Of a stretch of 64,000 nt of DNA, positions 6,627 to 21,941 are shown one piece after another. Source of the stretch: an uncultured bacterium (GTDB taxonomy: Bacteria > Krumholzibacteriota > Krumholzibacteriia > Krumholzibacteriales > WJIX01); NCBI GenBank assembly GCA_964554125.1, contig CAZKNG010000004.1:672-64671 (forward strand), in the 5' to 3' direction. The notes beneath the pieces were generated by a model that saw only the letters and a list, made by a program, of their open reading frames with translations, was not told the DNA's origin and did no database searches. Made by a program: the position numbers and the translations under genes. Position 1 is the stretch's first letter. Each line of letters begins with the position of its first letter.

Positions 6627-8018
6627 ATGAGTGGTCTTTTCGGTGTAGTTTCCAGCGATAGTTGTTCTGAATATCTGCTTTATGGAACGGATTATCATTC
6701 TCATCTCGGCAATGAATTCGGAGGAGCGGCGGTTTTAGGGGAAACTTTTCACCGGCAAATCCACGATATAAGTGACAGCCAGTTCAAATCGAAATTCGAT
6801 AAGGATATTATGGAAATGAGGGGGAAGATGGGAATAGGGGTCGTGAGCGCTGTTGATGAGCAACCTGTATATATGAATTCCAGGTTTGGTCCTTTCTGTC
6901 TCATAATGGATGGAATTATCAATAATTCCCGGGAGCTTGCCTCGGCGCTTCTTGACCGTGGAATCAGTTTCAGTGAAGTAGGGAAGGGTTATGTGAATCT
7001 CGCGGAGCTTACTGCTAAATTGATAACGCAGGGTGACAGCATTGTCAGCGGTATCGAAAAGATGTTCGATCAGATAAACGGTTCCTGTTCACTTCTCCTG
7101 CTGCATAGAGACGGAATCTATGCCGCCAGAGACAGGCACGGGCATTCCTCCCTGGCCGTTGGGAGAAACGGCGATTCTTGGGCGCTGGCTTCTGAAACAT
7201 CCTCCTTTCCCAACCTCAATTTTGAAGGTGAGAAGTTCTTAAGGCCCGGTGAGATCGTTTTGATAAATGAAAAAGGGCTTACGCGGAAAAAGAAGGGTTC
7301 CGACAAAAACCAGATTTGCGCCTTCTTGTGGGTATATACGGGGTTTCCGACTAGCAGGTATGAAGGTATAAATGTTGAGACAGTCAGAGAAAAATGCGGC
7401 AGATTTCTGGCAAAGAGGGATCGTGATATCGATGTGGATGTTGTCGCGGGTGTTCCTGATTCGGGGATTGGCCACGCGGTAGGATACGCTATTGAATCGA
7501 ATAAGCCCTACAGAAGGCCTCTGGTAAAATATACTCCCGGATACGGGCGGAGTTATATTCCCAGTTCACAGAATATGCGGGATCATATCGCCAGAATGAA
7601 ATTGATTCCCAATGAATCTATAATTAGAGGAAACAGAATTGTTATTTGTGAAGATTCGATAGTGAGAGGAACTCAGCTGAAAAATTATACTATCAGGAAG
7701 CTGTGGTCCGCCGGAGCTGAGGAGATCCACGTCAGAGTTGCCTGTCCTCCTCTTATCTTTCCGTGTAAATTCAATTTTTCAACCCGGAGTATCGGCGAAC
7801 TCGCGGCCCGAAGGGCTATAAGAGCAATTGAAGGAGCTGATGTCGGGGATGTCTCAGAATATGTGGATCACACAACAGAGAAGTACGCGGAGATGATAGA
7901 ATGGATAAGAAAGGATCTGAAAGTGACGACTCTGAGATATCAGACGATCGATGATATGATAGAATCGACAGGTATGCCGAGGGGAAAATTGTGTCTGAAC
8001 TGCTGGAACGGTGAATGA
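6627..8018 (+). CDS. PurF-like class-II amidotransferase / PRTase paralog lacking the N-terminal catalytic Cys (Ser2)
   Basis: N-terminus MSGLFGV compared with canonical MCGI. PRTase motif (VICEDSIVRGTQL) and a PurF-like C-terminal region (CPPLIFPCKF). The canonical purF is at 49147. Confidence 0.6.
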   Translation: MSGLFGVVSSDSCSEYLLYGTDYHSHLGNEFGGAAVLGETFHRQIHDISDSQFKSKFDKDIMEMRGKMGIGVVSAVDEQPVYMNSRFGPFCLIMDGIINNSRELASALLDRGISFSEVGKGYVNLAELTAKLITQGDSIVSGIEKMFDQINGSCSLLLLHRDGIYAARDRHGHSSLAVGRNGDSWALASETSSFPNLNFEGEKFLRPGEIVLINEKGLTRKKKGSDKNQICAFLWVYTGFPTSRYEGINVETVREKCGRFLAKRDRDIDVDVVAGVPDSGIGHAVGYAIESNKPYRRPLVKYTPGYGRSYIPSSQNMRDHIARMKLIPNESIIRGNRIVICEDSIVRGTQLKNYTIRKLWSAGAEEIHVRVACPPLIFPCKFNFSTRSIGELAARRAIRAIEGADVGDVSEYVDHTTEKYAEMIEWIRKDLKVTTLRYQTIDDMIESTGMPRGKLCLNCWNGE

Positions 8019-8981: not shown

Positions 8982-9758
8982 TTATTGCCCGGGATTTATC
9001 TCTCCGGAGTCTTCTTTCTTTTTCGTAAGTCTGCTGAAAATAATGTACGAAGGCACTGAAAGAATAATCCCCAGAGTAATTCCAGCCGCCACGTCAAGAG
9101 GCCAGTGTACTCCAACATAGATTCTCGAGAAGGAAACTGTTGCCGCGATCAGAAGGAGAGGGGCGAGAAGTTTTCTGTAGACGAGACCGAGAAACAGCAT
9201 GGAAGTTGTTATATTAGCCGCGTGTCCGGACGGAAATGAGAAGGATGATTTATATCCTCTGACCGCTTCAAAAGATGTGGTAATCCATCCTGAGCTCCCG
9301 CTCCAGAAACGCGCGCCGCCCAGCACTTCGCAGGGACGCGATCTTTGAAAGAGGGGTTTCATAATTCCACTGGATATCTGATCAGATGCTACCAGAAGGG
9401 GTATGAGCGCGAGAGCAGCCCATTTCCCTTTCGGCCCTCCGAATATTACAAGAGCTGACCATGAAAGTAGAATAATAATCTTAGACCTGTCAAAATCGGT
9501 AATAACAGGCATAACGGTATCAAATGCACGGTTGGCGAGGCGCGTATTAATAAACCGGAAGATCCTAGTGTCGTAAGATGATTCGTTCTGGAATTTATGC
9601 CAGGCTGCCCCCGAAAGAGAATCTGTATCTGCCGCGCGGGGAGTCGGCGCGCTGGAGGAAGCTGCCGGCAGCATAGCCAGGACGATGAATATCAGGAATG
9701 TCTGCCGGATTCTTTCTTTTGCCATAGCGGTACGGTTTTTCCTAAGATAATAATTCAA
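8982..9758 (-). CDS. PAP2-family phosphatase (undecaprenyl-diphosphatase-like), signal peptide
   Basis: PAP2 motifs KPLFQRSRP, SFPSGH and RIYVGVHWPLDV. Start may instead be the ATG at 9725 (MAKERIRQ). Confidence 0.7.
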   Translation of the reverse strand: MNYYLRKNRTAMAKERIRQTFLIFIVLAMLPAASSSAPTPRAADTDSLSGAAWHKFQNESSYDTRIFRFINTRLANRAFDTVMPVITDFDRSKIIILLSWSALVIFGGPKGKWAALALIPLLVASDQISSGIMKPLFQRSRPCEVLGGARFWSGSSGWITTSFEAVRGYKSSFSFPSGHAANITTSMLFLGLVYRKLLAPLLLIAATVSFSRIYVGVHWPLDVAAGITLGIILSVPSYIIFSRLTKKKEDSGEINPGQ

Positions 9759-10797: not shown

Positions 10798-12519
10798 ATG
10801 TTACCTCCTCTTTTACCTTCGGTAGTGAGACATTTTGTTTACCCTTTTTATAGAGGGTATAGAAAAGACAGGGTCCTTTCTATTCTGAGCGATTTGGAGG
10901 ATAATCAGTGGCTCGGAAAAGAACAGATAGAAGAGATACAATGGAGGAAGCTCAAGAAGCTGTTGAGTTACGTTTCCATCCATGTTCCCTATTACAGGGA
11001 TCTCTTCAGTAACAGGGGAATAGAACCCGATGAGATAGAAAGCCCCGCTGATTTTAAGAATATACCGTATCTGACAAGAAATGTTATTACAAAGAGCAGC
11101 CGTGATCTTATTACAGGAGATCCGCTGATGAAGGGATATGCTTCGAGTACCGGCGGGTCTAACGGTGACCCTCTCTATTTCTACTGTGATCTTGCGGCCG
11201 GTCCCGTCCGCCGTGCCAACACAATCAGGCAGTTCCGCTATGCCGGTATTGATATTGGCGACAGGCAGCTGCGGCTTATGGGAGATCAGCTGGATAGAAC
11301 ATGGAAGGAAAACGCCGCGGCGAAGGTAAAAGATTACTTCAATAATATTAAATTCCTGTCATCGTTTGATATGTCAGACGAAGCGATGAAAGAGTATATC
11401 TATGTTGAACACTTTTTTAAACCCTCTGTTATTGTAGCCTACCCTTCAGCTCTTGCTCTTCTGGCTCATTTTTGTAAGAGGAGGGCTTTGAAGGTTTTTA
11501 AACCGAAAGCCGTTGTTACAAGCGGGGAAATGCTGTACCCGGAGCAGAGGAAGATAATCGAAGAGGTCTTTTCCGCCCCTGTTTTCAACAGATACGGAAC
11601 CAGTCAGTTTTCCAATGTAGCCAGCGAATGTAAACAGCATAAGGGGTTGCATGTAGCGAGTGATCTCTTCTTCGTCGAAGTAATTAACAATAGCGGGAAA
11701 CCGGCTGAAGCGGGCGAAAAGGGGGAGCTGGTCATTACAGACCTGTCTAACTTTTACATGCCCTTTATAAGATATAGAACCGGAGATTATGCGGTTCCGG
11801 CAGGAAGAATTTGTGACTGCGGAATAGGTCTGCCTCTCCTTGAAAGGATTGAAGGACGCAGCTTAAATACTATCAGAACTGCTGAAGGCAAATCTGTCGG
11901 GGGTGCTTTCTGGACTAGACTTTCGAGAACAGTGCCGGGGATAAAGAGATTTCAAATTGAGCAGAAGGGTCTAAACAGCATCAATTACAGAATTGTTACC
12001 GGTCCCGGGTGGAAAGTTGAATTTAAAGATATCCTTGATAGAAAGATCAAGTCATACTGCGGAGATAATTTAAACATTACCTTTCTTGAAGTTGATGACA
12101 TTCCTCTTACACCCTCGGGGAAATCCAGGTTTATTATTCCTGATACCGAAGAAAAACTTGTCATTAAATCCAAGATACACAAGGCAAATATCACCTCGGC
12201 AGAACCTGATATGAATGACTGTCTGTGTATAGACGAAAAACTCATGGAGCTTGCCGATATTTCCGAATATGAAAAGATCCTCATCGTTGATGCCACAAAT
12301 GGAGTCCGTCTCGAAACATTCGCCGTGAAGGCCCCCAGAGATAAAGGTGATATTAAAGCCTGCGGAGCGGTCGCGGGAAAAGTTAACCCGGGGGATGAAA
12401 TAGGTGTAATGGCGTTTACATGGGCGAAGGAAAACGAGGTTGATTTCAGTAATATTCTCGTTGATAAGAGGAACAGGTTCTTACGTTATCTTACAGAATT
12501 TCCAGGGCATAAAATATGA
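10798..12519 (+). CDS. PaaK/CapK-type adenylate-forming ligase fused to a C-terminal degenerate PanD-like (aspartate decarboxylase fold) domain
   Basis: ANL/PaaK motifs SSTGGSNGDP, GELVITDL and YRTGD. The C-terminal ~115 aa align along their whole length with the PanD ORF downstream: KSKIHKA, ILIVDATNGVRLETF, GAVAG, GVMAFTW. Confidence 0.65.
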   Translation: MLPPLLPSVVRHFVYPFYRGYRKDRVLSILSDLEDNQWLGKEQIEEIQWRKLKKLLSYVSIHVPYYRDLFSNRGIEPDEIESPADFKNIPYLTRNVITKSSRDLITGDPLMKGYASSTGGSNGDPLYFYCDLAAGPVRRANTIRQFRYAGIDIGDRQLRLMGDQLDRTWKENAAAKVKDYFNNIKFLSSFDMSDEAMKEYIYVEHFFKPSVIVAYPSALALLAHFCKRRALKVFKPKAVVTSGEMLYPEQRKIIEEVFSAPVFNRYGTSQFSNVASECKQHKGLHVASDLFFVEVINNSGKPAEAGEKGELVITDLSNFYMPFIRYRTGDYAVPAGRICDCGIGLPLLERIEGRSLNTIRTAEGKSVGGAFWTRLSRTVPGIKRFQIEQKGLNSINYRIVTGPGWKVEFKDILDRKIKSYCGDNLNITFLEVDDIPLTPSGKSRFIIPDTEEKLVIKSKIHKANITSAEPDMNDCLCIDEKLMELADISEYEKILIVDATNGVRLETFAVKAPRDKGDIKACGAVAGKVNPGDEIGVMAFTWAKENEVDFSNILVDKRNRFLRYLTEFPGHKI

Positions 12520-13077: not shown

Positions 13078-14214
13078 ATGTTCAAAAGAAGCCTGCGCCT
13101 CTTTGAGCTATGGGGCATCCCGGTGGAAATTCATATCAGCTGGATTCTTATCTTCATACTTGTAACATGGAGCTTTGCCACCGGTGTTTATCCCGAGTCC
13201 TACGGCGGGACTTTCTCTTCCACTCAGTTATGGATCATCTCTTTTCTGACAGCTGTTCTTTTATTCCTGTCGATACTTCTTCATGAGTTCAGTCATTCTG
13301 TTGTTGCTATCCGAAATGGTCTTCCCATCGGGAAAATTACATTATTTATGTTCGGAGGCGTAGCTCAGATGCGCCGTGAGGTTGAAAGTCCTTCCGTGGA
13401 ACTCAAGATGGCCTCGGCGGGACCCGCGATGACCCTTGTGCTTATAGGTGTTTATTACCTTCTGGGCGTAATTTTCAGATCATTCGACACCCTTTTCGTG
13501 TTGTTCAATTCACTCGCGTTTATAAACGGAGCGATTCTTGTTTTCAATATGATTCCGGGATTTCCACTTGACGGCGGAAGAATACTGAGGGCGGTTATCT
13601 GGCGTAAGACAGGCAATCTTCTCAGAGCAACAAAAACAGCCAGCCGGATTGGAAAGGGTTTCGCCTTTTTCCTGATAGGTATGGGCATTATCAGTTTTCT
13701 GGTTAAGGGTAATCTTATAGACGGCATCTGGCTGATGATAATCGGCACTTTTCTGAGACAAGCCGCCGAAAGAAGCTACAAAGCCGTTATTTACCGGGAG
13801 GTCATGGAGAGATTCAAGGTTTCGGATATAGTAAGATATGATGTCGTGACAGTCGGATTGTCAGTTGATCTGCGGACACTTGTCGAGGATTATTTCAAAA
13901 AGCACCCCTTTCAATCTTTTCCCGTAGTGGAGGATGGGGTTCTGGTGGGAATAATCAGACTCGATGATGTTAAGAAGGTCGAGAGAGGAAAGTGGCCTGA
14001 AATAAAGACGGCGGATTTAGTAAACAGGAATATTTCAGATTACGCGATCCGGGCTTTTGATAATGCCGGAAAACTTCTCCGTCTTATACAAGAAAAAAAG
14101 TACGATTCTTTTCCGGTAATCGATGATTATGGAAGATTTACCGGCATTGTAACGAGGAGCGATTTCGAAGAAGCGGTAAGAGTTATGACTTCCATTAGAA
14201 ATTTGCCGGATTAG
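13078..14214 (+). CDS. Site-2 protease family (M50) zinc metalloprotease with C-terminal CBS pair
   Basis: HEFSH zinc motif in TM helix 2. Multiple TM helices. LDG motif (FPLDGGRIL). C-terminal tandem CBS domains. Confidence 0.75.
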   Translation: MFKRSLRLFELWGIPVEIHISWILIFILVTWSFATGVYPESYGGTFSSTQLWIISFLTAVLLFLSILLHEFSHSVVAIRNGLPIGKITLFMFGGVAQMRREVESPSVELKMASAGPAMTLVLIGVYYLLGVIFRSFDTLFVLFNSLAFINGAILVFNMIPGFPLDGGRILRAVIWRKTGNLLRATKTASRIGKGFAFFLIGMGIISFLVKGNLIDGIWLMIIGTFLRQAAERSYKAVIYREVMERFKVSDIVRYDVVTVGLSVDLRTLVEDYFKKHPFQSFPVVEDGVLVGIIRLDDVKKVERGKWPEIKTADLVNRNISDYAIRAFDNAGKLLRLIQEKKYDSFPVIDDYGRFTGIVTRSDFEEAVRVMTSIRNLPD

Positions 14215-14225
14215 TTTAGATAAAG

Positions 14226-16064
14226 CTATATCATCCCTGAATCGGTGTAGTTTTCTATTGAGCTTGAAGAGCTGCTCAGGTCTTCGATGATCGATGTGAG
14301 TGTAAACAGGTGATCAAAGCCGAACTTGCCCAGTTTCCCGGTGTTTTCTGAAATTCCGCCGAGCGACAGATATTCGCCGATTGAATGGCAGTTTTGAATC
14401 TGGCGGTTGAAGCATTCTACTATCTTTGAATTCTTCCCATACGGTCCTATTACATCGTTGGTCTGTTTTACCTTATTTCTTAACAACTTTTTCAGAGACG
14501 CGGGGAGGATGTAATACAATTCTCTCGCGTAAAGATATAACAGATATTTTTTAGAAGATATATCGAACCCCCAGTTGGCGTTACGGACAGCGGATGCTTC
14601 AGGTGAAAGTTTGAGCAGGAACTCCCGGTAGAGTTTGTATTTTGCTTTATGCTTATCCGGGCAATTCATGACAAAGTTAAAGAAGTGTATGGAATTAAAA
14701 GGCGAGACAGTCCAGAAGTAGAATCTGTTGCGGTCTTCTCCCTCAGATGTCCACTTCAGATTACGCTGATTGATTATAAAATGAACGTATTTTCCGTCCA
14801 TCCCTCTCTCGGGATACGCCGCGAGTTCTTCTCTTATTTCAGCTATAATATCATTTTCCCTGATCCCCGTGACAGCGGCTGTAATATCAAGTGGAACGAC
14901 ATGGTTCGTCTTGATAATAAACCGGGTCAATTCGTGTGTGTCTTTGAGTTTCTTAAAAGGTCTGGAATCGGGGATTATTAATCCCCCGCCCTCTCCGGTG
15001 AAATATGTAATTCTGTCTCCCCATTCGGTCCGTATCGCGTTGAAATAGGGTATGGAAAAACTCATTCCCAGGAAATTCATTCCATTCTTCATTCTGAGAA
15101 GTTTTAGAACCTCCTCTCCCGTAGCCTGTCCGATTTCAAAGAGTTTCCAGTCGAAATTCAGGACTTCGGATAATTCCCTCGCGATATCAATATCCTTCGC
15201 CGCTGTTTTATAGTAGTCGAGGAAGGTGGCGCCCGAGAAATCGATATCGATCCCTGTAAGGGCGGAGGCGACTGCTCTGGAATCCAGCCCGCCGCTCTGG
15301 GTGATTATATTCTTATCTACGGGGTCAGCCATTTTACCGCACATATCTGAGAAGATGGCAACCATCCGGTCAGCGGATTCACCTACACTGAGCCCGCGAT
15401 TGTTTTTCGAATCGTAATTGAAATTATAAAGTGTTTCTATTGAAACTCTATCCGATTTTCCATCTGATCTGATCACAGAAGCGGGCGGGAGGCGGAAGGT
15501 GTTTTTTAGCAGCGTTCTTCTTCCAAGGGGGAATCCCAGAAGCAGAAATTGAGAGGATCCGGTTCTATCGAAACCTGTTCCACCGGAGAAATGATGGATG
15601 AATCTGAGTTCTCTTGAGACTGTTAGTGTTCCCGCGTCTTCATTCCAGTATAGCGGAAGGCGTCCCAGAGCGTCATTTAGTATCCACAAAGAAGATGATT
15701 TCCGATGAAGTATGAATATTATAAAATCTCCATTTGTATCCATAAGCCACCGAGTGATCTTTTCTCTTGAGCTGCCGGAATTTTCTATAAACAGTTTGAC
15801 GAGTTTTCTGATCTCAGAAGAGATCTCCGAATGAGTTTTCCCGTATATCTTTCCCTCAAGGCAGATAAAGTATTCGCCATTCTCTATGACCGTCACCGGA
15901 TATTTCGCGTGACTCGTGCAGCATAGGAAATATCTGTCATCTTCGAGCAGTATATTCCGTTCGATCCATTTTTCGTGTATAACCGAATCCAGAGCTTTCA
16001 AGCTCTGCGCCTTTCTTTTTTTCAGCCCTCCGACGGGCTTATAGATAAAACTTATTCCAGGCAT
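14226..16064 (-). CDS. Asparagine-synthetase-like amidotransferase lacking catalytic Cys (Pro2); PP-loop intact
   Basis: N-terminus MPGISFIY compared with canonical MCGI. PP-loop SGGLDS present. 612 aa with an AsnB-type two-domain layout. Confidence 0.65.
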   Translation of the reverse strand: MPGISFIYKPVGGLKKRKAQSLKALDSVIHEKWIERNILLEDDRYFLCCTSHAKYPVTVIENGEYFICLEGKIYGKTHSEISSEIRKLVKLFIENSGSSREKITRWLMDTNGDFIIFILHRKSSSLWILNDALGRLPLYWNEDAGTLTVSRELRFIHHFSGGTGFDRTGSSQFLLLGFPLGRRTLLKNTFRLPPASVIRSDGKSDRVSIETLYNFNYDSKNNRGLSVGESADRMVAIFSDMCGKMADPVDKNIITQSGGLDSRAVASALTGIDIDFSGATFLDYYKTAAKDIDIARELSEVLNFDWKLFEIGQATGEEVLKLLRMKNGMNFLGMSFSIPYFNAIRTEWGDRITYFTGEGGGLIIPDSRPFKKLKDTHELTRFIIKTNHVVPLDITAAVTGIRENDIIAEIREELAAYPERGMDGKYVHFIINQRNLKWTSEGEDRNRFYFWTVSPFNSIHFFNFVMNCPDKHKAKYKLYREFLLKLSPEASAVRNANWGFDISSKKYLLYLYARELYYILPASLKKLLRNKVKQTNDVIGPYGKNSKIVECFNRQIQNCHSIGEYLSLGGISENTGKLGKFGFDHLFTLTSIIEDLSSSSSSIENYTDSGMI

Positions 16065-16282
16065 GGTAATTTCTCCGTGATAATCCTGCTGAGATTACAT
16101 GTCGATTAAGGAGACGCTCTAAGCGAATTTTACAGGTCCCGGGAGATATTGCAATAGTATTCTGCCGGTGAATGATGTGGAAACTATCGCTTGGCACGAG
16201 TTTGAAGAACCCGGGGGCGCGGCCGATCTGCCAGCAAGGCATCTCTAAGCTGTAAAGCATCTGACTCTACTGAAGGGTATGA

Positions 16283-16912
16283 TCATTTCTGTTCTCTGAG
16301 TCTATCTATTTCACTTATCTGTTGGCCTGTGAGTCTGTCAGCGCCTCCAAGAAGCTCTGTGAAAAGGGTCGTTCGCGCCGCCGCCTCGAGCACTTCGATT
16401 TTGCTGAAGGCCTCTTCAAGAGTCAGCCCAAGACAGACAGGTCCGTGATTCCTCATCATTATTACATCACTGCCTGCCGCGGCTTCGGAGACAGCGGAGG
16501 CAAGTTTTTCTGACCCCATAAGAGCATAAGGAACATTGGCTATCTGTCCCAGTATAAATCGTGATTCACCTGTGAAATCTGTCTTTATCTCTATGTTGGA
16601 TGCCGACAGGATGGTTGCCCACGGGGGATGAGCGTGAACAACGGCTCTGATATCATCGCGGCGATTATAGATTTTAAGGTGAAGGGAGGTTTCCATGCTG
16701 GGTGTAAGGTCACCTGAAAGATTTTTACCGTCTGTTGAAACTTCACAAATATTTTCGGCCGTGAGTCTTCCCTTGTCGAGCCCCGATGGAGTAACGAGGA
16801 TCGAGTTCGCGCCGTTTCTCAGGCTGATATTGCCTCCGCGCGCCGTTGTAAGTTCTCGCGCGTAGAGACGGTTTACAAAGTAGGCTATCTCTTCTTTTTT
16901 TCCTGATTCCAT
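16283..16912 (-). CDS. Class II aldolase/adducin-family protein (fuculose-P aldolase / MtnB-like)
   Basis: NISLR, VTPSG and HAHPPWATILS metal-binding His motifs. Confidence 0.7.
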   Translation of the reverse strand: MESGKKEEIAYFVNRLYARELTTARGGNISLRNGANSILVTPSGLDKGRLTAENICEVSTDGKNLSGDLTPSMETSLHLKIYNRRDDIRAVVHAHPPWATILSASNIEIKTDFTGESRFILGQIANVPYALMGSEKLASAVSEAAAGSDVIMMRNHGPVCLGLTLEEAFSKIEVLEAAARTTLFTELLGGADRLTGQQISEIDRLREQK

Positions 16913-17040: not shown

Positions 17041-18186
17041 ATGAAATATCTGGTGATTACAACATCGCTCTTAATGTTGATGATATCAACATCTGTTTCT
17101 TCACCCGGCAGGGAGCAGTCAACAGGAAAGACAAGGGAGCCCGTAGATACTGTCGGATACGCTGTTACCCCTTCGCAGACCGCAGCGGTTATGAATTTAT
17201 GTGATTCAATTGAAAAGGCCCGGTGTTTGAAGAATGAGAGGGCACATCCTGTAATGTCCGGAGGGGAGTTGATCGCGGCGATCTGCCCGCATGACGATTA
17301 TCTGTATGCCGCTCCCGTTTATTTTCACGTGATGAGAGAAATTACGGCCCCTGTGATTTTAATGATCGGCGTTTCCCATCATGCCAGACATAAGGGGATA
17401 GAGGGAAGATTGATTTTTGATGATTTTAAAAGCTGGAAAGGTCCCTATGGGAAGGTGAGGGTTTCCAGTCTCAGGGATGATATTATTGAGGCCCTTCCTG
17501 AGGAGATTGTTATGGTTGACGGCGATATTCACGCGAAGGAACATTCTCTCGAGGCTTTTCTGCCCTTTCTGCAGCATTCGGAGTTCTCTGATAGAAATAA
17601 AGCCCTGGAGAGGAGAGATTATTCTTTTCCGAGGATTATTCCCATTCTTGTTACCAGATTTAAGGGGGAGTCGCAGGGGGAAGCAGCCGGCCGGCTTGCC
17701 TCCGTTCTGAGAAAAGAGATGAAAGAGAGGGATTGGATTCTGGGAAAAGACCTTCAGGTTCTTATTTCAGCCGATTGCGTGCACTATGGAGATAAAAAAT
17801 GGGGCGGGCGCAATTACGCGCCTTTCGGGACGGATGCCAAAGGGTATGAGAAGGCCTTGAAACAGGAAATGAAGATAATAGATTCATCCTTAACAGGTGT
17901 AATAGATGACGGGAAAATAGATCGATTCAGATCTCTGGTTGAGAGAGATGACCCGGAGTGGCCCTATAAAATACCGTGGTGCGGGGTTTATTCGATCCCT
18001 TTCGGTTTGAGTGCCGCCAGAAGATTATGTGAACTTGCCGGCCGCGAAGCCCCGGAGGGATTTTTGTTAAAATATCAGACCAGCCTGGAGCCTGGGAAGA
18101 TCAGCCCTGAAGCGGAGGGACTTGGAGTAACAAACATTAATACCCTTCATCATTGGGTTGGATACGCGGCTGTCGGTTACTGGTAA
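17041..18186 (+). CDS. MEMO1-family protein with N-terminal signal peptide / extension
   Basis: Memo-like motifs (ICPHDDYLYAAPVYFHV, GVSHH). The hydrophobic N-terminus suggests export. Confidence 0.55.
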   Translation: MKYLVITTSLLMLMISTSVSSPGREQSTGKTREPVDTVGYAVTPSQTAAVMNLCDSIEKARCLKNERAHPVMSGGELIAAICPHDDYLYAAPVYFHVMREITAPVILMIGVSHHARHKGIEGRLIFDDFKSWKGPYGKVRVSSLRDDIIEALPEEIVMVDGDIHAKEHSLEAFLPFLQHSEFSDRNKALERRDYSFPRIIPILVTRFKGESQGEAAGRLASVLRKEMKERDWILGKDLQVLISADCVHYGDKKWGGRNYAPFGTDAKGYEKALKQEMKIIDSSLTGVIDDGKIDRFRSLVERDDPEWPYKIPWCGVYSIPFGLSAARRLCELAGREAPEGFLLKYQTSLEPGKISPEAEGLGVTNINTLHHWVGYAAVGYW

Positions 18187-20843: not shown

Positions 20844-21941
20844 TTAAAACTTAAACGGTCGCCGGCGTTTTGTTTCCTCGATCAATCTTAACATCTCCTC
20901 CTCCACGCGTTTCATATTTACCTCCCACAGGCCGCGTTCTTTGATTCTGCTTATATTTATTTTACGCGCTTTCCGAGTAAAATTTCTATCTTTAACCGTT
21001 TTGACTACAGATTCCGCGAGTATGCGGGGGGAGCCGGCAGGTACTATCATTCCGTTTTCCCCATCCTCGATCCATTCCCTGTTTCCTTCAAGGTCGGTTA
21101 CGATAGGGGTCAAACCGCTAGCCATCGCTTCGAGCAGGGAAACGGAAGTGGAATCGGAAAGGGATGTTGATATATATATATCGCTTTTTCTAAGCTCCTC
21201 TGAGAGTTTTTCAGGGCTGAGTCTTCCCTTAAAGGTGAATTTTCCGCCTACCCCGAGGCTATCAACTTTTTTCTCGAGATTTTCACGTTCAGGTCCGTCC
21301 CCGCATATAATAAAGTAAGCGTTTATCTCTTTTAAAATTTTGGGGGAGGCTTCTATTAAGAGGTCTATATTGTATATACTATAAAGATTACGAGTGCTTA
21401 TTATCAATGTTTTACCGTTACCGGCTGATGGTTCGGTGTTTTCATCGGATGGATAGAAGAGATTCTTATCTATACCGAAGTATATTTTGAGGATATTTTT
21501 CTTCATAGCGCCTGCCTCAGCGGCAATTCTTGAAAGATCCTCAGAGTCAGCCGTGATTAAATCGGCTTTTCCAATCGAGTAATTGATCTGCAGTTTATGG
21601 ATGAAATGTTTTCTGTAATCCACGAGAAGGTCGGAACCGAGAGCTGATAAAACGAGGGGTCTGTAGCCGCATAAGGCCCCGATCAATCCGTATCCGGTTA
21701 TATAGAGTGAGTTGACAATATCGGGCCGGAACGCTCTGAGTCTTTTCTTTACTGCCCCAAGTGATGAGAGGTATCCGAGAAGATCTGTGGGCAGGTGTTT
21801 CCTCAGATCTATTACAGGCACGGGGGAATTTACTGTTTCTTCGAAGGATAGCAGAAGAACTTCGTGGCCCTGTCTCTGGAAGAACCCTCCCCAGCGTTTT
21901 ATATGATTAAGTGAGCCGTCTCCTAGAATAGCTAGCCGCAT
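20844..21941 (-). CDS. Glycosyltransferase family 4 (GT-B, group 1)
   Basis: C-terminal EAMASGLTPIVTD...GENG block typical of GT4. Confidence 0.7.
   Translation of the reverse strand: MRLAILGDGSLNHIKRWGGFFQRQGHEVLLLSFEETVNSPVPVIDLRKHLPTDLLGYLSSLGAVKKRLRAFRPDIVNSLYITGYGLIGALCGYRPLVLSALGSDLLVDYRKHFIHKLQINYSIGKADLITADSEDLSRIAAEAGAMKKNILKIYFGIDKNLFYPSDENTEPSAGNGKTLIISTRNLYSIYNIDLLIEASPKILKEINAYFIICGDGPERENLEKKVDSLGVGGKFTFKGRLSPEKLSEELRKSDIYISTSLSDSTSVSLLEAMASGLTPIVTDLEGNREWIEDGENGMIVPAGSPRILAESVVKTVKDRNFTRKARKINISRIKERGLWEVNMKRVEEEMLRLIEETKRRRPFKF

Follow-up and report, generated by a model that had tools for sequence, protein, structure and literature searches.

The window analysed here, a stretch of 64,000 nucleotides (nt) of DNA from an uncultured Krumholzibacteriota bacterium, carries at 14226..16064 on the minus strand a gene for a protein of 612 amino acids (aa) that resembles the asparagine synthetase AsnB and has proline at the position of the N-terminal nucleophile (Ntn) cysteine of class II amidotransferases. 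The protein was assigned to a family referred to below as the 'MPG' clade, which we regard as an uncharacterised clade within the AsnB superfamily, set apart by its conserved N-terminus and N-terminal domain (N-domain) and by its glycan-associated genomic context.

Gene, reading frame and domain organization

The sole long open reading frame (ORF) at the locus is 14226..16064 (-), and the translated protein begins MPGISFIYKPVGG. The features of the gene and its product, with the evidence used for each, are as follows.

14226..16064 (-): complete ORF of a Cys-less AsnB-superfamily protein of the 'MPG' clade, 612 aa plus stop (ORF list, translation)
16127..16154 (-): promoter-like TTGCAA-16-TAAAAT between this gene and the aldolase gene, which lie 218 nt apart (consensus match only)
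16095..16097 (-): in-frame TAA, 11 codons 5' of the start (direct sequence reading)
16073..16076 (-): Shine-Dalgarno-like GGAG, 8 nt 5' of the ATG (direct sequence reading)
16059..16061 (-): codon 2, CCT (Pro), at the Ntn Cys position of class II amidotransferases (sequence reading)
15420..16064 (-): N-terminal Ntn-amidotransferase-like domain, aa 1-215, predicted to be non-hydrolytic (Pfam GATase_7 28 bits, fold match, column statistics)
15843..15857 (-): E70-G71-K72-I73-Y74, aligned with AsnB N74-G75-E76-I-Y (hmmsearch to human ASNS, hhalign to E. coli AsnB)
14625..15419 (-): PP-loop ATP-pyrophosphatase (synthetase) domain, aa 216-480 (profile match to the PP-loops of ASNS, NAD synthetase and QueC; fold match)
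15279..15296 (-): PP-loop S257-G-G-L-D-S262, followed by R263 (sequence; alignment)
14982..14999 (-): T356-G-E-G-G-G361, aligned with AsnB S346-G-E-G-S-D351 (hhalign, column statistics)
14724..14744 (-): family signature E441-G-E-D-R-N-R447 (EGEDRNRFYFW), with D444 and R447 invariant (alignment)
14646..14648 (-): K473, the invariant Lys of the synthetase domain, 60/60 (alignment)
14226..14624 (-): helical C-terminal extension, aa 481-612, family-specific and less conserved (AlphaFold2 secondary structure)

A preliminary description of this DNA had given the protein start as MPGISFIY, without Met-Cys, and this start is borne out by the translation, the upstream stop, the GGAG at ribosome-binding distance and the orthologues, which begin alike. 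The codons from the stop to the ATG read TAA-TCT-CAG-CAG-GAT-TAT-CAC-GGA-GAA-ATT-ACC; neither an ATG, a GTG nor a TTG was found in frame between the TAA and the ATG of the gene, which leaves no upstream start that could encode Met-Cys. Conversion of codon 2 from CCT to a Cys codon (TGT or TGC) takes two substitutions, so that a single sequencing error cannot account for the proline. A sequencing error or a wrongly called start as the source of the MPG terminus was ruled out by the upstream stop, the ribosome-binding site, the two-base distance from Cys and the orthologue starts. The PP-loop SGGLDS is intact at residues 257-262, with an invariant core in the alignment described below; with no upstream Met-Cys and no error at codon 2, the earlier observation of a Cys-less protein with a retained PP-loop stands. 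A database protein (P0001) from a Candidatus Krumholzibacteriaceae metagenome-assembled genome (MAG) is 100% identical to the window protein, and the gene order of its contig is that of the window. The promoter-like site is weak evidence, given that 12 such sites were counted in the scanned region against 5.3 expected.

Relation to the AsnB superfamily was established with a family profile and a structure model, since a single-sequence search of PDB sequences with the 612-aa protein returned nothing meaningful and only these two approaches connected the protein to AsnB, beta-lactam synthetase (beta-LS) and TsnB9. GATase_7 (28 bits) was the sole match in the Pfam scan, the best NCBIfam match was asn_synth_AEB (TIGR01536) with 36.9 bits against a cut-off of 267.1, and TIGR03108 matched weakly (24 bits, cut-off 817). 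The family profile reached human ASNS with E 2e-8 across both domains, TsnB9 with E 2e-4, beta-LS (1jgt) with E 4e-3 over 52 residues at the PP-loop only, and CarA (1q15) with E 0.9, and it also reached the PP-loops of NAD synthetase and QueC. An AlphaFold2 model built on a 60-sequence alignment of the family (predicted local distance difference test 94.2, predicted template modelling score 0.93) was compared with the PDB using Foldseek, which placed TsnB9 (7ylz) first (E 1.5e-17, template modelling score 0.66-0.70), followed by beta-LS, E. coli AsnB, CarA and human ASNS with both domains matched at 12-16% identity; E-values for TsnB9, beta-LS, AsnB and CarA were 1e-17 to 1e-15. Matches to PurF-type amidotransferases covered only the N-domain, those to other PP-loop enzymes only the C-terminal domain. 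Judged from the model, the protein is a two-domain AsnB-superfamily protein with a helical tail of ~130 aa, and the AsnB-like assignment made in the preliminary description is upheld by the Foldseek matches together with the profile match to human ASNS.

Distribution and conserved residues of the MPG clade

Homologues were searched for among 5.8 billion proteins, which yielded 408 matches; the best 120 of the 408 are ~600 aa long with 36-60% identity over the full length. Residue 2 was checked in these orthologues, and the MPG start is present in 105 of the 120, while the remaining sequences are truncated at the N-terminus or contain an MPG a few residues after a wrongly called start. When 1.84 billion cluster representatives (50% identity) were searched with a profile, 1,005 proteins were obtained at E<=1e-30. 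Of 134 new representatives, the start is MPG in 96 and V/LPG (GTG or TTG start) in 6, the MPG is internal in 9, ~15 are fragments, and residue 2 is Leu, Ile, Ala, Val, Thr or Arg in 8; Cys was found at this position in none of the 134. Pro thus occupies residue 2 in ~111 of ~119 further full-length representatives (~93%).

Bacterial members occur in Krumholzibacteriota, WOR-3, Cloacimonadota, Nitrospinota, Planctomycetota (Scalindua), Zixibacteria, Anaerolineae, Bacteroidota, Fibrobacterota and Desulfobacterota, and archaeal members in Nitrososphaeraceae, Bathyarchaeota, Methanoculleus and cultured haloarchaea (Natronorubrum, Natrialba, Halomarina and Natrinema); the Natronorubrum aibiense orthologue, WP_161991535.1, is annotated 'hypothetical protein' and starts MPGVSIQY. 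Features of the clade are the start M-P-G-[ILM]-[SHN]-[FL], the motifs E-G-x-I-Y, SGGLDSR, TGDGGDK and EGEDRNRFYFW, the invariant K473 and a length of ~600-630 aa. The window protein has this motif set, save TGEGGGL for TGDGGDK and Asn for Asp at position 111. A literature search on the family and on Pro-type Ntn domains found no relevant paper.

In the N-domain, the conserved set comprises P2, G3, S5, Y52, Y55, P56, E70, G71, Y74, W106, D111 (Asn in the window protein), G112, N130, D131, R135, Y139, R151 and F155, and polar residues are abundant among the conserved positions (S5, Y52, Y55, E70, Y74, D111, D113, N130, D131, R135, R151, D166). Invariant in the 60-sequence alignment are P2 (60/60), Y55, G71, G112, L136, Y139, R151 and F155 of the N-domain and, beyond it, S257, G258, G259, D261, S262, G357, E419, D444, R447, P455 and K473; R263 is present in 59 of 60. 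Conservation of >=90% is reached by 32 of the 215 columns of the N-domain and by 46 of the 265 columns of the PP-loop domain, and the conservation value is 0.55-0.60 in these two domains versus 0.45 in the C-terminal extension. From these column statistics the N-domain looks remodelled, not decayed, with conservation on a par with that of the ATP domain. A degenerate N-domain is accordingly not supported, the domain being under strong constraint and its Pro a family-wide, start-anchored feature, which lay beyond the reach of the preliminary description.

Some branches depart from the consensus start. Proteins of the Natrinema (L023, L024, L027, L030, L041, L042) and Methanoculleus (L043) branches start MVG, and a Polluticaenibacter protein (L045) starts MGIS and has the variant PP-loop SAGQDS; all of these retain the EGxxY, NDxLxRLP and EGEDRNR motifs. 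In these proteins, as in the eight representatives without Pro2, the other conserved residues of both domains are kept. Co-variation of Pro2 with pocket residues was tested and none was found, the non-Pro variants keeping E70, Y55, Y74 and others. Pro2 is thus strongly preferred but replaceable by aliphatic residues, and a role in packing or in defining the terminus fits better than indispensable catalysis.

Active sites of the two domains

Active-site residues were compared using hmmsearch against human ASNS and hhalign against E. coli AsnB; the AsnB sequence used for hhalign is very probably the correct one, and that alignment ends at residue 379. Pro stands where AsnB has the Ntn Cys1, and Glu70 where AsnB has the oxyanion-hole Asn74 (position 70 is Glu in 58 of 60 sequences and Asp in 2, and G71 is invariant, 60/60). 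The AsnB ligand of the glutamine alpha-amino group, Glu76, corresponds to K72, a variable basic residue in the family, whereas G75 is kept as G71, and in the 60-sequence alignment no conserved Arg or Asp was found in the regions aligned with AsnB R49 and D98. With Pro for Cys1, Glu for Asn74 and the equivalents of E76, R49 and D98 gone, glutamine hydrolysis is excluded as far as can be read from the sequence, so that the preliminary claim, made from the Cys position, holds and extends to four further residues.

In the synthetase domain, the PP-loop residues S257, G258, G259, D261 and S262 are invariant, and an SGEGSDE-like motif is present, for which the family consensus is TGDGGDK and the Krumholzibacteriota clade of the window protein has TGEGGGL; the acidic residue aligned with AsnB E348 (D/E358 of the family) is kept. 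K473 is possibly the counterpart of AsnB K449 or beta-LS K443, the latter being catalytic in beta-LS along with a Tyr348-Glu382 dyad; K473 lies beyond residue 379, where the hhalign alignment stops. The proposal that the domain retains its ATP motifs is thus confirmed, and carboxylate adenylation would follow from them. Loss of the glutaminase residues together with retention of the ATP motifs makes glutamine-independent adenylation and amide formation a reasonable chemistry.

Similarities to AsnB and ASNS are the two-domain fold (Foldseek E 1e-16 to 1e-14), the PP-loop SGGLDS, the SGEGSDE-like motif, an 'xDxxGxxPLYY' strand and a chain that begins at the Ntn-residue position. The family differs in having Pro for Cys1 and Glu for Asn74, in lacking conserved counterparts of R49, E76 and D98, in its low identity (~13%), in the additional helical tail of ~130 aa and in its glycan-cluster context. 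TsnB9, a hydroxyamidotransferase of a Streptomyces trichostatin pathway that presumably retains a glutaminase-type N-terminal nucleophile, is the best structural match to the window protein, yet it shares only 13% identity and has another genomic context. AsnB-type amidotransferases of O-antigen and exopolysaccharide (EPS) loci, for example WbpS, WbtH and the XrtA/PEP-CTERM amidotransferase TIGR03108, share the polysaccharide-cluster setting and the presumed amidation of glycan carboxylates, but are probably canonical, Cys-type and glutamine-dependent. PseA/WbpG-type amidotransferases are, by description, single-domain PP-loop proteins of ~370-380 aa, in contrast to the 612 aa, two domains and tail of the window protein, and no NCBIfam model of the PseA/WbpG kind matched it at E<1.

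In the Cys-less relatives beta-LS and CarA a carboxylate is adenylated, an amide is formed without glutamine and a small molecule is cyclised intramolecularly; their N-termini are not conserved. These enzymes (1jgt, 1q15) share with the MPG family the Cys-less AsnB fold at high structural similarity and are among its top structural matches, and one orthologue carries the NCBI label DUF1933, the beta-LS/CarA N-domain. Lasso-peptide cyclases of the McjC type are likewise AsnB-like and glutamine-independent, and form isopeptides. It is nevertheless extremely unlikely that the window protein is an intramolecular cyclase of either kind from a natural-product pathway. DUF1933 did not match the protein at E<1, its sequence match to beta-LS is confined to the PP-loop and that to CarA is insignificant (see above), the lasso-cyclase model NF033535 gave 22.9 bits against a cut-off of 525, and the N-terminus and N-domain pocket of the MPG family are strongly conserved, unlike those of beta-LS and CarA. 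No clavam or carbapenem genes were found among the neighbours of the window gene or of its relatives, and no lasso precursor, B-protein or RRE genes in any context examined. The preliminary description had equated the pattern with that of beta-LS and lasso cyclases, and in this it went too far: the MPG family appears to be glutamine-independent like beta-LS, CarA and lasso cyclases, and fails sequence membership of each.

The N-domain might itself be catalytic, with the secondary amine of Pro1 and with Glu70 and Tyr55/Tyr74 acting as base or nucleophile, a possibility we consider unlikely; its task would then be either to handle a different nitrogen donor or to activate the amine that is passed to the acyl-adenylate. 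Pro1 is catalytic in enzymes of the tautomerase superfamily and in Fpg. Members of the family start exactly at M-X-G, with Pro in ~93%, at the canonical Ntn-residue position, and longer called N-termini always have an internal MPG. A near-invariant carboxylate occupies the oxyanion position, and constraint on the N-domain matches that on the ATP domain, in contrast to the decayed N-termini of beta-LS and CarA. By the specificity of methionine aminopeptidase, Pro-Gly permits removal of the initiator Met, whereas with Leu or Ile at residue 2 it should be kept; in most members a secondary amine would therefore lie free beside Glu70. On the other side, the eight representatives and the Natrinema and Methanoculleus branches without Pro2 keep all other conserved residues, and since the Leu/Ile variants would also retain Met, neither the proline nor a free amine can be indispensable there. 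If the N-domain were catalytic, it would be an Ntn-fold domain with its Cys nucleophile exchanged for Pro and a new means of nitrogen supply or activation for a PP-loop amide synthetase, and could be the mechanism, long looked for, that links amino acids or amines to the acidic sugars of surface glycans in bacteria and archaea.

Genomic context and proposed function

Genomic context was examined in 47 loci retrieved with the EGEDRNR signature pattern and in contigs of individual homologues, in which ORFs were called and neighbours were clustered and annotated. Within four positions of the family gene, 41 non-Krumholzibacteriota loci contain 256 genes, among them 29 GT1/GT4 glycosyltransferases, 12 Wzx flippases, 8 Wzy_C proteins, 5 MurJ-like proteins and 7 methyltransferases, as well as GT2 glycosyltransferases, DegT aminotransferases, polysaccharide deacetylases and pyruvyl transferases. 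The gene immediately downstream is often a GT4, and long codirectional clusters surround the family gene in Scalindua and on several metagenomic contigs. On a cultured haloarchaeal megaplasmid the neighbours are a polysaccharide deacetylase, a glycosyltransferase and a GNAT protein, and in a Methanoculleus genome a distant family member adjoins a flippase and a GT4. Most family members sit in Wzx/Wzy-type glycan clusters.

Two clusters of neighbour proteins without a Pfam match (~580-735 aa and ~590-670 aa) recur beside the family gene in haloarchaea (L023-L042, L034) and Methanoculleus, accompanied by DUF7344 proteins. In a Deltaproteobacteria polysaccharide cluster (L012; 39-1823, 8689-10521, 19053-20213), the MPG-type gene is found together with two CapK-like ligases, a canonical-looking AsnB-like gene (RLAILD glutaminase motif) and yet another AsnB-like ORF, the third and a shorter one; coexistence of the canonical-type and MPG-type genes suggests different roles.

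Krumholzibacteriota have two paralogues of the family, both of which are present in MAG JAFGPI01. The second paralogue (~41-49% identical to the window protein) has a fixed position (L001, L007, L008, L010, L011, L054, L058), divergent from the succinate dehydrogenase (sdh) operon and adjoining a DEAD/MZB helicase, an RNase_H_2-like gene, an M23 peptidase and QueH. This sdh / gene / DEAD-MZB helicase synteny looks like inherited gene order, of the paralogue other than that of the window. The closest relative of the window protein (60% identity; L053, 6329-9852) lies directly downstream of, and codirectional with, an SxtJ-DUF5989-carbamoyltransferase-GDSL/SGNH hydrolase cassette, which may be a glycan O-carbamoylation/acylation module.

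From these data it is moderately probable that the MPG family consists of cytoplasmic, glutamine-independent, ATP-dependent amide synthetases acting on a glycan-associated carboxylate. The C-terminal PP-loop domain would bind ATP/Mg2+ and adenylate the carboxylate with release of pyrophosphate, and an amine (free ammonia, an amino compound or an amino acid) would attack the acyl-adenylate to give the amide and AMP. The N-domain keeps the Ntn-amidotransferase fold, with the chain starting at the former Cys position, and would not hydrolyse glutamine; its rebuilt pocket (Pro1 after Met removal, Glu70, Tyr55, Tyr74, Asn130 and Asp131) would most likely bind or deliver either the nitrogen nucleophile or a portion of the substrate. 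The substrate, as judged from the loci of relatives, would be the carboxyl group of a cell-surface glycan precursor, nucleotide-sugar- or polyprenyl-linked, and we infer that the orphan Krumholzibacteriota copy in the window does the same job as its glycan-cluster relatives. The C-6 amide of a uronic acid in the Methanoculleus marisnigri N-glycan and threonine amides of uronic acids in archaeal N-glycans are documented (PMC11407970); such chemistry is thus needed in lineages that bear the family, and no enzyme assignment links the two.

Cys-less AsnB homologues were already known as specialised amide and lactam formers. New here is an uncharacterised group of ~1,000 clusters (50% identity) across Bacteria and Archaea that lies mostly in surface-glycan clusters. 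Glutamine-free glycan amidation, if true, would provide a function for a 'mystery' gene that is common in O-antigen and EPS loci and in the N-glycan loci of archaea, and could explain amide or amino-acid decorations with enzymes yet unassigned. The near-universal Met-Pro start and the rebuilt, conserved pocket raise the question of what the former Ntn active site is re-used for, and the orthologues in cultured haloarchaea make the proposal experimentally testable.

Several points weigh against glycan amidation. Family annotations are only 'hypothetical' or 'asparagine synthase-related', with no characterised member, and Pfam Asn_synthase did not match the 612-aa protein at E<1. UDP-sugar 6-dehydrogenase is not among the commonest neighbour families of relatives, which leaves a uronate substrate without specific support. 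The window copy lies outside any glycan cluster, as is general in Krumholzibacteriota. Its clade carries Gly in place of the Asp of AsnB (D351) and of the family consensus, and the protein itself departs from near-invariant family residues (D111N, R245M, L256Q). The changes D111N and R245M, with D361G of its clade, could also mark a non-catalytic relic, that is, a pseudoenzyme or a scaffold in glycan assembly complexes. This is very unlikely, as the ORF is intact and the PP-loop, E419, D444, R447 and K473 are invariant across ~35-60% identity, a conservation pattern typical of an active site. A role of the window protein as a housekeeping asparagine synthetase that uses ammonia, or as an enzyme amidating some other amino acid, is distinctly unlikely: asn_synth_AEB is the best NCBIfam match and one Krumholzibacteriota paralogue occupies a conserved non-glycan site beside the sdh operon, but the match falls far below its cut-off (36.9 bits vs 267), identity to AsnB structures is ~13%, the family lies mostly in glycan clusters, several genomes have two paralogues, and a canonical AsnB-like gene stands alongside in L012.

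The genes surrounding the family member in the window are the following.

8982-9758: PAP2 phosphatase
10798-12519 (+): CapK/PaaK-type adenylate-forming ligase with a C-terminal PanD-like domain (aa 455-560), 573 aa
12687-13046 (+): stand-alone PanD, 40% identical to the fused PanD-like domain
13078-14214 (+): M50 (site-2-protease-like) peptidase with two CBS domains, convergent to the 612-aa gene with 11 nt between ORF ends
16283-16912 (-): class II aldolase, on the same strand as the 612-aa gene and 218 nt upstream
17041-18186 (+): Memo-like/AmmeMemoRadiSam system protein B homologue, 69 bits
Between 18186 and 20844, given by order only: DUF192, then a ClC channel, beyond the Memo-like gene
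20844-21941: GT4 glycosyltransferase, the nearest GT4, 4.8 kb from the 612-aa gene

No terminator-like hairpin was found between the M50/CBS gene and the 612-aa gene, and neither an AMMECR1 nor a radical-SAM partner of the Memo-like protein was found among the nearby genes scanned. The preliminary description had placed the gene convergent to the ligase-PanD module and had taken the module and the aldolase as signs of a tailoring role; the convergent partner is instead the M50/CBS protease gene, and aldolase and PanD genes are not recurrent beside relatives. A conserved operon with the window neighbours was ruled out by comparison of more than 50 loci. The only recurring neighbour type is the CapK-like ligase, of which forms without a PanD domain (25-28% identity to the 573-aa protein, E 1e-37 to 1e-41) adjoin family genes in two other independent loci, L004/L005 and L012. 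The fusion of such a ligase with PanD (aspartate decarboxylase) at 10798-12519 is unusual.

Proximity of the ligase-PanD fusion to the gene, together with the adjoining ligase homologues in those two loci, could indicate that the enzyme works with the fusion protein and PanD in tailoring a small molecule or polymer with beta-alanine. We regard this as improbable, because the genes are convergent and separated by the PanD and M50/CBS protease genes, the ligase is found in only ~3 of ~45 independent loci while CapK-like ligases are in any case frequent in capsule clusters, and no ligase of this kind adjoins the gene in the closest relatives (L053, L001, L054, L058). Amide formation on a glycan-associated carboxylate remains the preferred function.

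A second Cys-less protein of the Ntn-amidotransferase fold is encoded 6 kb from the 612-aa gene at 6627-8018 (+). This PurF-like protein of 463 aa matches GATase_7 with 48 bits, has a phosphoribosyltransferase-like C-terminal half and starts MSGLFGV, with Ser at the N-terminal Cys position.

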